NCBI GenBank assembly: GCA_045221335.1
Contig: JBGUWS010000014.1
Span: 70,261-134,260, forward strand
DNA: 64,000 nt
From: Alphaproteobacteria bacterium
GTDB taxonomy: Bacteria; Pseudomonadota; Alphaproteobacteria; RF32; CAG-239
Direction: 5' to 3'
Part shown: one piece after another, positions 53,873 through 61,499 of the stretch
Layout of the letters: each line of letters begins with the position of its first letter
Numbering within the stretch: position 1 is the first letter of the stretch
The notes under the pieces: model-generated
What the model was told of the DNA's origin: nothing
Seen by the model: the letters and a program-made list of their open reading frames with translations, nothing else
Databases searched by the model: none
Position numbers and translations under genes: made by a program

Positions 53873-54571
53873 ATGACATTAAATAAATTAGATATTCTTT
53901 CTAAAATGGCATATTTTGCAAAATGCAAAAAAACAGCTATAGTACGTATATTAGAATTTCTCATACCACTAAATGACGAACAATCTGTATTGATGAATAT
54001 TTTTTATAATGCCTATTTTACTTACTGGTTAGGGTTAGTAGATTATTTGATAAAAGATGTTTCTTTTATTAAGCAAGAAGATATAGAAAATATAGTAGGT
54101 TCTAAAGATAATTATTATTACCTTAGAAATCTAAGAAATGCGGTTATTCATAGGGCTGAGGACTTAGCTGATAAAGGAACTGTTATTAATAATACAGATA
54201 TTATAACCCCATTTTCTCCTATAGATGTTATGGATCCATTTGGAAAGAAAAAATACCAACCATTTTATAACAATTTAATACAAATCATATTAAAATGTGA
54301 AGAGATAAATGAAATATGCATAAAATTGATAAAACAATATAATTTGACAGATTATCCTGATCTTACTAAAGAAGAATTTATGGATAGGTGTAATCGTGAT
54401 CCTTATATTTCATCGTATGTAAAAACGGATGAAATATCCGAAAAATCTTGGCAACATTATTATAGCATTAAAAATGATATGAAAAAAGAAAATGTAAAAA
54501 AGATTTTATCTTATTTTGAAACTCTTAATTTATTTCAAGATGCGATAATAAAAGATAATAAGATAGATTAA
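53873..54571 (+). CDS. Hypothetical protein with Rx4H (HEPN-like) motif, candidate Abi-type RNase
   Basis: 232 aa, predicted all-helical, ~26% GC. Motif YYYLRNLRNAVIHRAED fits HEPN Rx4-6H. A paralogous motif occurs in the 248-aa protein at 60432. No other recognisable domain. Confidence 0.4.
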   Translation: MTLNKLDILSKMAYFAKCKKTAIVRILEFLIPLNDEQSVLMNIFYNAYFTYWLGLVDYLIKDVSFIKQEDIENIVGSKDNYYYLRNLRNAVIHRAEDLADKGTVINNTDIITPFSPIDVMDPFGKKKYQPFYNNLIQIILKCEEINEICIKLIKQYNLTDYPDLTKEEFMDRCNRDPYISSYVKTDEISEKSWQHYYSIKNDMKKENVKKILSYFETLNLFQDAIIKDNKID

Positions 54572-54806
54572 ATATTAGCAATAATTTTGGAGTGACTAAA
54601 ATCAAAGGCTAATTTAACTTTTATTTTTCGATAATAGAAGTTTTTCTTCCCTGTATAAGCGATTTTGGTTTTGACATAGGTTTGATTATAAAAGATAGAT
54701 TCGGTTATTATAGGGTAATTTTTGATAAGTTAATAATCGTATGAATTTATTATTTCTAAACTATTGGTGTTTTATTATATCGTAGTTTAATGGAGTGATT
54801 TATCTT

Positions 54807-55919
54807 ATGAAACCAGATATACAAAAAATATTTAGCCAATATGGAATAACCAATAAAATGCATAACGATGCATATGATTGGCAGAAAAAATATTGGGAAA
54901 TTAGTAATGAGATAAGTGGTAAGAATGAATGGGAGGACATTTGTATTGGATTTTTCGCTTATATTACACTATGGACGTTAATATTGTTTGGTTTAGCATT
55001 TCTTGATGATAAATCAAATATTTCTCAAGACTTGCTTGCTTTCCTTATTATTGTAGTTTTATTAAATATATTTTTCTACTTAATGGGAAAGCAAGAAAAT
55101 AAGAAAAAAGAAGAATATAAACATAAAATAGAAAGCCATAAATTAGAAAAAGTTCACCATTCTGAATATGAATACAAAGAACAGAAACTAGCAAGCGATT
55201 ATGAAACTGAATTAAAAAATCTTCAAAGTAAAATATTTAGAAAAAGAGTTAGTGAAACATTTAAGGATAATTTACAAAAATATAATGATTTCATAGATAC
55301 CTGTAGTTATATAAACCATTATCTTGTATTTGCTCACATAAATACTTATGAACATAGAGAATACGCTAAAAAACGAGGTTATTCTCTTGTTACAAATAAT
55401 TATTCTTCTTTAAGTAAAAAAATACTTCCTAAAATTGAAGAAGATTATTCTTCATCTAAGCCTATAGAAAGCAAAAGTATTAAAAGTAAATTTAATCCTC
55501 AAAAAATAGATTGGCTTGAACTTAATAAATCTAATGCCAAATTAGGAGAATATGGGGAAAGCATAATTATAGATTTGGAAAAGGAATATCTGATAGAAAA
55601 CGGATTAAAAGATTTATCTGAAAAAATAGAATGGGTATCACAGACCAAAGGGGACGGAGCAGGATATGATATTTTATCATATGATACAGGCGGAAATTGT
55701 AAATATATAGAAGTTAAAACTACATGTGTGTCGGAAAACGAACCTTTTTATGTAAGTGATAATGAATTGAATTTTATTAAAACACATTTGGATAATTATT
55801 TTATATATCGTTTGTATATCGATAAAAATTCCAATACAGTAAAATTGAGAGTATTTAATTCAAGCGAATTTTTAAACTTTGCTCTTCGTCCTGTATCGTA
55901 TAAAGTTATTTTAAATTAA
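54807..55919 (+). CDS. Membrane-anchored protein with C-terminal DUF3883-like PD-(D/E)xK nuclease domain
   Basis: Two N-terminal TM helices, a K/E-rich coiled-coil linker, and a C-terminal ~130 aa with LGEYGESI, GYDILSYD, IEVKTT and SDNELNFIK. These match, as I recall it, the DUF3883 restriction-endonuclease-like consensus (D...E-V-K). Start moved to ATG 54807 (GGAG RBS). Confidence 0.55.
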   Translation: MKPDIQKIFSQYGITNKMHNDAYDWQKKYWEISNEISGKNEWEDICIGFFAYITLWTLILFGLAFLDDKSNISQDLLAFLIIVVLLNIFFYLMGKQENKKKEEYKHKIESHKLEKVHHSEYEYKEQKLASDYETELKNLQSKIFRKRVSETFKDNLQKYNDFIDTCSYINHYLVFAHINTYEHREYAKKRGYSLVTNNYSSLSKKILPKIEEDYSSSKPIESKSIKSKFNPQKIDWLELNKSNAKLGEYGESIIIDLEKEYLIENGLKDLSEKIEWVSQTKGDGAGYDILSYDTGGNCKYIEVKTTCVSENEPFYVSDNELNFIKTHLDNYFIYRLYIDKNSNTVKLRVFNSSEFLNFALRPVSYKVILN

Positions 55920-56183
55920 CAAATAAAATTTTAGTGCTGTAATCTATAACTCCTTGATTTTCTTATCTTCTCATCCTAAAAAGTTCGAAGATTATTTGGG
56001 GTATGGCTTATTTTATATCAAACATTCGAACTCGCCGAAAGCTATTCCGCATCCGGAAAAGATTTCCAAAGTAACGCATAAACCACTAGAGGTGCCCTTT
56101 GTATATCCCTTAGTATTTGCGCGACTAAATTTGAGATAAGCTTATCTAACACTAGTGTTATTATTGTGTCGGCTCCATACTTT

Positions 56184-56203
56184 AAGGCTTAGAGCCTTTT
56201 TTA
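56184..56203 (+). terminator. Short hairpin + T-run (aaggct-tag-agcctttttt) upstream of fic
   Basis: 6-bp stem followed by T6. It shares the 19-nt string agagccttttttatgaaaa with the terminator after fic. Confidence 0.4.
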
Positions 56204-56295
56204 TGAAAAAAATGTCAATATTCGGGAAATTTTACTTGCTTTTTCGGGAATTATTCGGTAATATTTCGGTAAAGAATAGAGAAAAGGAACATAAA

Positions 56296-59987: not shown

Positions 59988-60432
59988 TCTGCATACGGTG
60001 TTGCGCTTGCCTACCGGTATTTTTTATGCGCAGGGTGTTAAGGCTAATGTTATTTTCTTTGATAAATATCCGCCACTTGATAAAGGACACCGCACAAATG
60101 ATGTGTGGTTCTATGACTTACGCACCAATATTAATTTAAGCTTGGTTACAAACTCTTTGAATGACAGCCATTTAGCAGACTTTATTAAGTGCTATAATGC
60201 AGATAATATTATGGCGAGGACAGAGAGCGAACGCTTTAAGAAGTTTACTTATGACGAAATTATCAAACGCGATAAGGTAAGCCTTGATATTACTTGGCTC
60301 AAAGACGAGAGTTTAGAGAGTCTTGAAAATCTGCCGGAACCGGAAATTTTGGCAGATGAAATCGTTGATAATCTGGAAACAGCACTGGATTCATTCAAAA
60401 ACGTGCTGACAGAGTTACAGAAAGCAGAGTAA
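59938..60432 (+). pseudogene. hsdM: Remnant of type I methyltransferase gene: C-terminal ~150 codons only, N-terminal catalytic domain deleted
   Basis: The translation from ~59980 (NLHTVLRLPTGIFYAQGVKANVIFFDK...VWFYDLRTN...SLDITWLKD...LPEPEILADE) closely matches the C-terminal region of EcoKI-type HsdM as I recall it. No SAM-binding or NPPY/F region is present upstream. Confidence 0.7.
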
Positions 60433-61178
60433 TGGTTACTGAAAATGAAGTTTTTAATTGTGCAGGTTGGCAAGCTATAAATCGTATATCTTCCCTTTCA
60501 CACATACATAATGTATTCTTTCAGAATGGACTAGAGCTACATAATTTACTTAATGAAATACATAATGACGTACAAGTTTCACAAGATACGCAAGAAAAGG
60601 TTTTTTACCATTTACAACAGAAAATTTTCAACTACTTAGCAGCTTCATCTGCTTTAACAGATAATGCTCGTAGATTTATGAAGTATTACAAAGGAACGAC
60701 ATTTTATAAAGAATATGAAAAGAAAGTTATAGAATTATTCCAAAATAATAAATTATCTCATTTTATCCGTAATTTAAGAAATTATCAAACCCATTTTGAG
60801 CTAGTATTTCCTTACCCTGTTCGTTCGCTAGAGGATGATAAGCATTGGGATGTTGTGCTTATATCTGCAGAGTTACTAAAACATAAAGAAGAGTGGAACC
60901 TGGAAGCAAAAGAATTTATAAAGGACTGCGGAAAAGAAGTTAACCTAACTCAAACTTTTGCTGAATATACAAATATTATTAATGCCTTTTATTTGTGGTT
61001 ATATACGAAATTTTCGGAATACCACAAAGATGATCTAATTGAACGTGATCAATTAATAAAATTAGCAAAGTTGCAGTCTCCAGAACAAAAAATTAATCCA
61101 TTAAATTTAACTTCTGATTGGTGTGAAGAAATTATAAATTTTTTGCAAGAACGAAGCAACAAATTAAAACCTGAGTAA
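60432..61178 (+). CDS. Hypothetical protein with Rx4H (HEPN-like) motif, paralog-like to the 53873 gene; embedded at the hsdM 3' end
   Basis: 248 aa. Motif SHFIRNLRNYQTHFELV (Rx4H) at a similar relative position to the 232-aa protein. Its start overlaps the hsdM-remnant stop (TAATG). Confidence 0.4.
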   Translation: MVTENEVFNCAGWQAINRISSLSHIHNVFFQNGLELHNLLNEIHNDVQVSQDTQEKVFYHLQQKIFNYLAASSALTDNARRFMKYYKGTTFYKEYEKKVIELFQNNKLSHFIRNLRNYQTHFELVFPYPVRSLEDDKHWDVVLISAELLKHKEEWNLEAKEFIKDCGKEVNLTQTFAEYTNIINAFYLWLYTKFSEYHKDDLIERDQLIKLAKLQSPEQKINPLNLTSDWCEEIINFLQERSNKLKPE

Positions 61179-61392
61179 AACCCATATATAAAATTACAAA
61201 AGTATATGAAGATCAAACTTTTTATGAAGTAGATGATGAAGAATAGGTAATTGTGTAAATTTGGGACTGTATTTCTCATAACTACTTGAAAAATAAGGAT
61301 AGTCATTATAATTGGTCCGTGTAAATGGCGGGGAGAGGCTGTTTTTAATTTGACTTACACGGACTAGTCTGAAAGCCTTGCAAAATAAAGAA

Positions 61393-61418
61393 AAAAGCCA
61401 CCTCAAAAGGTGGCTTAT
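61393..61418 (-). terminator. Rho-independent terminator for tRNA-Gln (minus strand)
   Basis: aagccacc-tcaaaa-ggtggctt hairpin with a T-run on the minus strand immediately 3' of the tRNA. Confidence 0.7.
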
Positions 61419-61424
61419 CTGCTC

Positions 61425-61499
61425 TGGCTGGGGCGGCTGGATTCGAACCAACGAATGTCGGCACCAAAAGCCGATGCCTTACCACTTGGCGACGCCCCA
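61425..61499 (-). tRNA. tRNA-Gln (anticodon UUG), 75 nt with encoded CCA
   Basis: Reverse complement TGGGGCG-TCGCCAAGTGGTAAGGCA-TCGGC-TTTTGGT-GCCGA-...-TTGGTTCGAATCCAG-CCGCCCCA-G-CCA. It has a cloverleaf with a GGTTCGAATCC T-arm. Confidence 0.85.

Follow-up and report, generated by a model that had tools for sequence, protein, structure and literature searches.

The last third of the 64-kb window analysed here (the whole stretch of DNA under study, from contig JBGUWS010000014.1 of an Alphaproteobacteria bacterium) contains a run of six genes that ends at a tRNA-Gln gene. We consider, with a probability of roughly 0.75, that this run is a mosaic and partly decayed defence island at a tRNA-Gln hotspot, assembled from independently mobile single-gene units, and not one system. 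The first of these units would be H1, a 232-aa protein with an Rx4H motif from an undescribed HEPN-like family, whose native home seems to be between hsdS and hsdR of type I restriction-modification (R-M) operons and which appears to be an orphan here. It is followed by a 1.4-kb cassette for a putative membrane-tethered DUF3883 PD-(D/E)xK nuclease of the PDC-S36/PD-T4-1 type, probably put into a slot bounded by short junction modules, and by a class II Fic protein with a winged helix-turn-helix (wHTH), apparently of the SoFic type, that lies between terminator-like repeats. Next comes a type I R-M operon that was probably killed by one deletion, in which hsdR was fused to the last third of hsdM and hsdS was removed. 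The last gene codes for H2, a 248-aa Rx4H protein of what may be a second HEPN-like family, presumably coupled translationally to the end of the operon. The original prediction, made from the sequence, had raised the possibility that the Rx4H, membrane-anchored DUF3883 and Fic genes represent a new unnamed system. The test of co-occurrence was negative, and the lack of co-occurrence together with the boundaries of the cassette indicates, therefore, that no new multi-gene system is present; each surviving gene would act alone as an abortive-infection or nuclease effector.

The island comprises the following open reading frames (ORFs) and right-hand features:

53873-54571, + strand, H1, ORF of 232 aa (ORF listing)
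54795-55919, + strand, DUF3883 gene, ORF of 374 aa (ORF listing)
56155-57354, + strand, Fic ORF (ORF listing)
57501-59987, + strand, hsdR ORF, coding for an HsdR of 828 aa (ORF listing)
59938-60432, + strand, ORF of the 3' part of hsdM (ORF listing)
60432-61178, + strand, H2, ORF of 248 aa (ORF listing)
61395-61416, - strand, terminator hairpin of tRNA-Gln (terminator scan)
61425-61499, - strand, tRNA-Gln(ttg) (ARAGORN and Rfam)

The description of the genes in the original prediction was accurate in most respects. The six ORFs were found on the + strand at the positions claimed, and the patchy composition is evident from the GC content, which is 0.246 for H1, 0.260 for the DUF3883 gene and 0.297 for H2, versus 0.383 for Fic, 0.415 for hsdR and 0.389 for the hsdM remnant (0.356 for the whole window). 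Likewise, Pfam matches bear out the identities given for the DUF3883, class II Fic, hsdR and hsdM-remnant genes; the Rx4H motifs are present as RNAVIH (residues 88-93 of H1) and RNYQTH (residues 116-121 of H2), and the overlap of H2 with the hsdM stop is seen in the sequence TAATG.

The variability of this site is the first line of evidence. The tRNA-Gln gene and its terminator (61395-61499) are the right-hand anchor of the variable region, and the 3' end of the tRNA points toward the island. According to the relatives of its MarC protein, the host belongs to uncultured low-GC Alphaproteobacteria known from metagenome-assembled genomes (MAGs) of rumen and gut; a member of the H2 cluster is labelled in the same way. 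Five related contigs carry the same tRNA-Gln (L002, L003, L005, L007 and L014; such numbers label the contigs and loci used for comparison), and in all of them the DNA homology ends at 61423-61425, i.e., at the 3' end of the tRNA, with wholly different DNA on its 3' side. The genes of the island and those of its left flank are missing at tRNA-Gln in these five relatives, save for one Rx4H homologue each in L007 and L014. The cargo found instead includes a tyrosine integrase right at the tRNA plus AbiLi/AbiLii in L003; a Druantia-type DruE (1947 bits), an H1 homologue and a 402-aa membrane protein in L007; and, in L014, a large serine recombinase whose ORF ends within the tRNA, in an element with an H2 homologue. 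Since these relatives differ in the defence cargo that they carry, the 3' side of tRNA-Gln is a true variable hotspot for defence cargo, and the view that a composite, variably occupied island abuts this tRNA is upheld by the comparison. The alternative, that the region is conserved core genome and not an island, can be given almost no weight. It would agree with the fact that neither an integrase, recombinase or transposase, nor an att-like partial copy of tRNA-Gln or direct repeat of its 3' end, was detected in the window, and with the gene order of L001, the sole other contig of this organism (the only one that an identical MarC protein retrieved from the collections searched), which has the same genes, identical in sequence. 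However, it accounts neither for the entirely different 3'-side DNA of the five relatives, nor for the patchy GC content, nor for the presence of a near-identical DUF3883 cassette in other contexts.

The recombinase of L014 is a 536-aa ORF (10973-12624) that stops 33 bp inside the 3' end of tRNA-Gln, and an ORF end in this position is the signature of an element integrated into a tRNA gene. The cargo of this element also includes a reverse transcriptase, ankyrin-repeat proteins and a split H2 homologue.

The second line of evidence comes from the DUF3883 gene, for which the limits of a mobile unit can be drawn:

53715-53810, + strand, D1 junction module of about 85 nt with a hairpin, upstream of the H1 gene (repeat family D1)
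54618-56033, + strand, DUF3883 cassette of 1.42 kb, formed by an upstream region with a 5' module (54654-54711), the gene (54795-55919) and a 3' module (55947-56013)

The 374-aa protein has two hydrophobic segments (residues 47-71 and 74-101 in the hydropathy profile), which form an N-terminal hairpin followed by a charged linker, and ends in a DUF3883/NOV_C domain (PF13020; 1.7e-19, 70.1 bits against a cut-off of 22.1 in Pfam). This domain has been assigned to the PD-(D/E)xK superfamily (PMC3424549, PMC3710099), and the nuclease residues D292 and E306-V-K308 are present in the window protein. The start of the gene is possibly the ATG at 54807, given that relatives have been called at 370 aa. 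Among the PADLOC models, the protein matches PDC-S36 (3.9e-40), PD-T4-1 (4.9e-22) and TmtA (5e-16), whereas most database relatives of the domain are fused to MrcB or DUF3427 reader domains instead. By analogy with its family, the DUF3883 domain would cleave nucleic acid from its membrane anchor.

The complete cassette is 96.5% identical in nucleotide sequence, over 1420 bp, to the loci L015-L020, where it lies in a different context, and 85% identical to L021. The DNA identity with the other copies begins 47 bp past the H1 stop, and therefore the mobile DUF3883 unit excludes H1. The short 5' and 3' modules are found in L007 too (8706-8763 and 10140-10195, equivalent to 54654-54711 and 55947-56002 of the window), but there they flank an unrelated gene, that of the 402-aa protein, a multi-pass membrane protein encoded downstream of the H1 homologue. 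From the recurrence of these modules around a different gene it follows that the DUF3883 gene sits in a swappable slot, and the arrangement suggests cassette replacement through recombination between conserved junctions. On genomic evidence, the DUF3883 gene thus appears to be a single-gene unit that moves alone, without a conserved partner. The modules also occur in L015 at 7654-7747 and 8580-8649, the 3' module recurring there after a T5orf172 gene. The loci L015-L020 correspond to contig JAFTFU010000078.1 of GCA_017458285.1, which NCBI labels as a Clostridia MAG, and to ENA/Logan contigs. A cassette with 96.5% identity, accompanied by the same D1 and junction modules, in a contig with this label would reflect either a very recent cross-phylum transfer or a mis-binned alphaproteobacterial contig.

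The D1 module has a second copy at 53010-53100, upstream of a 165-aa gene, and a weaker one at 51290-51380; no further copies were found elsewhere in the 64-kb window. It is also located upstream of unrelated genes in L015 (5450-5545 and 6292-6328) and L021 (5130-5220). Its consensus reads ...GCGAGATAAAATTTTGATTGTTTTTAACTTATGGGTGTTA.GAACC.GAGGTTGATTTTAAA, with a hairpin of the form CTTNNGG...CCNNAGG that shows some compensatory changes. Taken over three genomes, D1 is placed 75-140 nt upstream of four unrelated genes, and it might serve as a terminator/promoter junction, as an operator or as a site of recombination.

These boundaries bear directly on the possibility that H1 and the membrane-tethered DUF3883 nuclease, perhaps with Fic, form one new multi-gene defence system, which we regard as very improbable. 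The H1 and DUF3883 genes are adjacent and co-oriented, and both are very low in GC. Moreover, every close homologue of the DUF3883 gene has a co-oriented upstream gene of similar size and at similar spacing: for relatives at 99%, 80% and 45% identity, the upstream genes code for 219, 225 and 230 aa. However, tblastn, BLASTP and hhalign (probability below 1%) show that these upstream genes are unrelated to H1, to H2 or to each other, and they have no PADLOC match; the idea that they are cryptic relatives of H1 was rejected on the same BLAST and hhalign results. In none of nine H1-family loci is there a DUF3883 neighbour, so that the 232-aa and 374-aa genes, whose joint occurrence in other genomes had been proposed as a check, were never adjacent among the H1-family loci examined. 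In addition, the mobile cassette leaves H1 outside, the junction modules of L007 enclose a different gene after the H1 homologue, and a terminator separates Fic from its neighbours.

The third element is the R-M module, in which the homology was followed across the fusion:

57501-59964, + strand, homologous part of hsdR; the ORF continues to a stop at 59987 in hsdM-derived DNA
59965-60432, + strand, hsdM 3' remnant, corresponding to about residues 331-481 of a 483-aa relative

The hsdR gene is EcoAI/EcoEI-like, with ResIII, HSDR_N and EcoEI_R_C matches in Pfam together with NCBIfam matches, and the protein keeps intact the nuclease residues D52 and E66-x-K68 and the helicase motifs GAGKT (188) and DECH (316). 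Nevertheless, it lacks about 85 C-terminal residues, and EcoEI_R_C is matched only at profile positions 2-88 of 163. In blastx comparisons, the HsdR homology ends at 59963, i.e., at reference residue 825, in intact relatives of 910 and 913 aa. The hsdM homology starts at 59965, at reference residue 331 (blastx against the operon from Polymorphobacter, and reading of the frame), and what is left of the gene covers positions 199-295 of 311 of the N6_Mtase profile in Pfam and 321-480 of 487 of the PADLOC MTase_I model. The intact relatives have their genes in the order hsdR (910 or 913 aa), hsdS and hsdM (483 aa), as in the Polymorphobacter operon. The window lacks the end of hsdR, the whole of hsdS and the N-terminal two-thirds of hsdM, the part with the catalytic core in type I methyltransferases. 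The two homologies end next to each other, at 59963 and 59965, and therefore one deletion, of at least some 2.6 kb and with its junction at approximately 59964, is read from the sequence as the event that removed these parts and fused hsdR to the last third of hsdM.

Neither hsdM nor hsdS was found elsewhere in the 64-kb window, and a complete set of hsdR, hsdM and hsdS is thus wanting; to judge from its gene content, the type I R-M module is dead. It might be argued that the module is still functional, with the shortened HsdR working with HsdM and HsdS encoded elsewhere in the genome, considering that its nuclease and helicase motifs are intact and that the hsdR ORF is uninterrupted, with the identical sequence in a second sample. 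We consider this improbable, because the final 85 or so residues are gone, including half of the EcoEI_R_C domain, the window provides no other hsdM or hsdS, and the same deletion took away the cognate hsdS. In type I enzymes, the C-terminal region of HsdR mediates assembly with the methylase, which also counts against a functional module.

The Fic gene is the remaining unit upstream of hsdR, and its surroundings are the following:

56203-57354, + strand, class II Fic with a C-terminal winged helix, 383 aa (PF02661, 3.8e-17, plus a wHTH match)
56158-56209, + strand, left D2 repeat, 52 nt, with a hairpin, a T-run and ATGAAAA (repeat family D2)
57365-57416, + strand, right D2 repeat, 52 nt, with a strong terminator-like hairpin at 57378-57403 (terminator scan)

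The most likely start is the ATG at 56203, as called in the identical contig L001. The active-site signature HxFx(D/E)GNGRxxR is present as H229-PFTDGNGRMSR-240, and N-terminal to it lies the inhibitory motif S85-N-R-I-E89-G90, which aligns with SSNRLEG of 8uqu. Class II is defined by an inhibitory (S/T)xxxE(G/N) helix in the same polypeptide, N-terminal to the active site (PMC3667792). The nearest solved relative detected with phmmer is 8uqu_A (1.4e-37), while SoFic chains match over the core (4.5e-10). The PADLOC SoFic model gave a full-length match (2.4e-49), from which a defence-finder would label this protein SoFic; as a SoFic orthologue it was rejected, given that the NCBIfam equivalog NF046030 scored 61.6 bits against a cut-off of 550. 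SoFic-type proteins have been reported to AMPylate targets such as EF-Tu in abortive infection (PMC12249575; bioRxiv 10.64898/2026.07.09.737422), and by analogy the window protein may AMPylate a translation factor and cause growth arrest once its inhibitory helix is released.

The two D2 copies that bracket Fic are 75% identical, and their final 19 nt (AGAGCCTTTTTTATGAAAA) are the same; they could be the footprint of the insertion of a Fic cassette. Each consists of a GC-rich hairpin, a T-run and an ATG, and the downstream copy opens a 5-codon ORF (MKIGK).

The genes at both ends of the run, H1 and H2, raise the question of whether they belong to the HEPN superfamily. This superfamily is described by an Rx4-6H motif with N, D or H after the arginine, placed where helix 3 ends, entering the loop ahead of helix 4, and by an acidic residue in helix 2, often as Ex3[KR] (PMC3710099); the motif, the polar residue that follows R, the position where helix 3 ends and the acidic residue of helix 2 were taken from that work to evaluate the two proteins. 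Among 72 aligned H1 relatives, whose identity to the window protein ranges from 17 to 66%, R88 and H93 are found in 72/72 and no other column is invariant. The residue after R is N89 in 67/72 (H in three and S in two), R94 and G95 are conserved in at least 90%, and position 57, in the predicted helix 2, is D or E in 69 of the 72. For H2, R116, N117, H121 and D77 are invariant in the eight close members (8/8), with K or R at position 81, i.e., Dx3[KR]. The distant plasmid relatives of H2 (n = 3) keep Rx4H in two cases, those of Vibrio and Micromonospora, and have S, N or H after R; in the Halomicrobium copy, H and the helix-2 D are lost together, with K for the motif histidine and N for the aspartate, and it is probably an inactivated copy. 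This archaeal relative (L034, 5746-6480, in a plasmid of Halomicrobium urmianum) is located two genes from a DNA cytosine methyltransferase.

The predicted structures agree with this placement. The AlphaFold models of H1 and H2 are helical (predicted local distance difference test, pLDDT, of 77 and 83, respectively), with the motif ending the third long helix. In the AlphaFold2 model of H1, the helices span residues 5-28, 35-62 and 68-75/78-100, with R88-H93 at the end of the third, and confidence collapses from residue 95; in that of H2 they span 11-45, 51-84 and 90-104/107-122, of which the last has R116-H121 at its end and leads into a loop and strands.

Several results weigh against this assignment. 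The original prediction had called both proteins HEPN-like and had looked to hidden Markov model (HMM) searches for the domain, and no HMM detects HEPN in either of them: H1 and H2 have no Pfam, PADLOC or NCBIfam match, nor does any family member at E<=10. Furthermore, sequence-profile searches of the PDB with the alignments A1, A2 and A3 gave chance matches only, and a Foldseek search of the models against the PDB returned nothing below E 0.17. On the other hand, two of the 72 H1 relatives have sub-threshold Pfam hits, to HEPN_RiboL-PSP (8e-4) and HEPN_Cthe2314 (2e-3), and these were the sole Pfam hits below E=0.005. The HEPN call draws only on the invariance of the motif, the predicted structure and the genomic context, and on these grounds H1 and H2 are probably two undescribed HEPN-like families.

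As to what these proteins do, we lean somewhat toward a nuclease function for both. They would be latent metal-independent RNases acting through the R/N/H triad and the acidic residue of helix 2. The opposite reading takes the Rx4H motif as incidental and H1 and H2 as helical accessory or regulatory R-M subunits, involved, for example, in assembly, specificity control or anti-anti-restriction. This is unlikely, in view of a motif that is the sole invariant feature in 72 such divergent sequences, accompanied by conservation of the N after R, of the R-G pair and of the helix-2 acidic residue; its position at the end of helix 3 fits the HEPN definition, the weak Pfam hits of two members are both to HEPN families, and the concerted loss of H and D in one distant H2 relative points the same way.

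A relationship between H1 and H2 was sought and rejected. BLASTP and hhalign align only the region of the motif, profile probabilities were 6.5% and 17%, and the scores of single sequences were barely above those of shuffled controls; without demonstrable homology beyond the motif, the two are treated as separate families. The H1 family is represented by nine close clusters, and an exhaustive profile search brought the number to 99 (clustered at 50% identity), while the relatives of H2 are a smaller and widely scattered set; all public copies of both are annotated as hypothetical protein. The phage collection contained no relatives of either protein, and the plasmid collection contained no H1 relatives. 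In a 2131-aa protein (P0145), 12 separate stretches align with positions 132-206, in the C-terminal part of the H1 profile, which points to a repeat protein of that sub-domain or to a compositional artefact.

The genomic neighbourhoods support the claim that HEPN genes of this sort are nested in R-M loci, since homologues of both Rx4H families lie inside or at the end of R-M operons. In six loci (L010, L025, L026, L027, L028 and L029), H1 relatives with 40-55% identity lie right after hsdS and/or before hsdR of type I operons, with gaps of 3-4 nt or an overlap, and in L008 the H1 relative follows hsdS and precedes a DUF3800 gene. The H2 homologue of L011 lies 4 nt after res of a type III-like operon with AbiTii and Abi_alpha, that of L013 is beside Mrr, and that of L014 is within the recombinase-bearing element at tRNA-Gln. 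Type I R-M operons crowded with embedded genes were seen in L025 (RelA_SpoT and the H1-like gene), in L029 (PIN_12, the H1-like gene, a 278-aa gene of no assigned function, and Fic divergently upstream) and in L031, a Pusillibacter plasmid operon with four embedded hypothetical genes, none of which has a Pfam match.

In their native operons, and by analogy with PrrC, H1 and H2 might provide a back-up, set off once the R-M complex has been put out of action. A more specific proposal, which we put forward tentatively and hold to be possible but doubtful, is that some type I R-M operons have a recurrent fourth gene that had gone unrecognised, the H1-family gene, which has a fixed place between hsdS and hsdR and whose translation is coupled to that of hsdS. 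Its product would be a minimal HEPN RNase, held inactive by R-M and freed when a phage disables restriction, and thus a guard that resembles PrrC but lacks the ATPase module; H2 would play the corresponding role, from the end of the operon, in type I and type III systems.

As a whole, the island is a textbook case and not a discovery. It illustrates that tRNA hotspots turn over by swapping single-gene cassettes and that R-M operons decay while the toxins that they carry survive. It also illustrates that adjacency in a defence island is not evidence of a system, as it was the co-occurrence test that removed the proposed pairing. Its interest is modest and lies mainly in two unannotated R-M-associated HEPN-like families and in the cassette-slot architecture. 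The fresh content is limited to these two unnamed families of probable RNA-cutting toxins, usually within R-M operons; they are the useful product of this work, having been overlooked by the current Pfam, PADLOC and NCBIfam models, and adding H1 and H2 to the libraries used for defence annotation, together with a test of their role as R-M guards, would be a modest but concrete gain.

Some features of the surrounding DNA are also worth describing. Between H2 and the tRNA terminator there is an inverted repeat with perfect 10-bp arms (GTCCGTGTAA...TTACACGGAC) and a loop of 30 nt, at 61307-61356, for which Rfam gave no family match. Close to it, 59 nt at 61338-61396 are 91.5% identical to an intergenic stretch of L021 (5047-5105) that lies beside the D1 module of that locus. 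Upstream of the island are three very large + strand ORFs, at 13404-18824 (1806 aa), 32966-38428 (1820 aa) and 39432-50438 (3668 aa), and the repeat-rich region that contains them may belong to the same variable segment as the island. The 3668-aa ORF resembles, by its sequence, an autotransporter-type adhesin. The last 45 bp of this autotransporter gene, including its stop (50400-50444), recur with 93% identity at 51223-51267, after a 207-aa gene. Because of this duplication, it appears that the 207-aa gene was inserted with a copy of the autotransporter 3' end or that a second autotransporter gene was lost there.

When the units are compared with known systems, Fic shares with SoFic, a class II Fic AMP-transferase described as an anti-phage abortive-infection (Abi) toxin (PMC3667792, PMC12249575, bioRxiv 10.64898/2026.07.09.737422), the class II layout and the C-terminal winged helix. 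It differs in that no ORF of at least 50 aa exists between Fic and hsdR, the only one there being the 5-codon ORF of the downstream repeat; therefore, a gene for an AS1-like antitoxin is not apparent. Both PD-T4-1 (Vassallo et al. 2022, PMC9519451) and the PADLOC candidate PDC-S36 are single-gene DUF3883 defence proteins, and the window gene is likewise stand-alone and mobile. The main text of Vassallo et al. 2022 has no description of PD-T4-1, the matches there being to PD-T4-10. The placement of the DUF3883 domain is alike in the PD-T4-1 model of 383 positions (window residues 218-373 versus profile positions 218-377). In contrast, the match to PD-T4-1 and PDC-S36 is restricted to the C-terminal 150 residues or so, and the hydrophobic hairpin and charged linker of the window protein are outside both models.

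H1 and H2 resemble the HEPN/Abi genes embedded in R-M loci (Abi2/AbiD/AbiF, AbiU2, AbiJ, ApeA and PrrC/RloC; PMC3710099) in being small genes with an R-N-x3-H motif located within type I or type III R-M operons or as their last gene, in some cases with Fic/Doc or other toxins, and the placement of their motif and the helix-2 acidic residue fit the description of the superfamily. However, they match none of the Pfam, PADLOC or NCBIfam models of those families, they are about 230-250 aa long with an extra C-terminal helical half and, unlike PrrC/RloC, they have no ABC-ATPase domain; H1 is further distinguished by its fixed site between hsdS and hsdR. Finally, the locus is like tRNA-linked integrative defence islands in having variable defence cargo at the 3' end of a tRNA. 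The relatives have integrase or recombinase elements at the same tRNA-Gln, whereas the window copy has neither a recombinase nor an att duplication, and the turnover of its content seems to proceed through the replacement of cassettes between short conserved junction modules.

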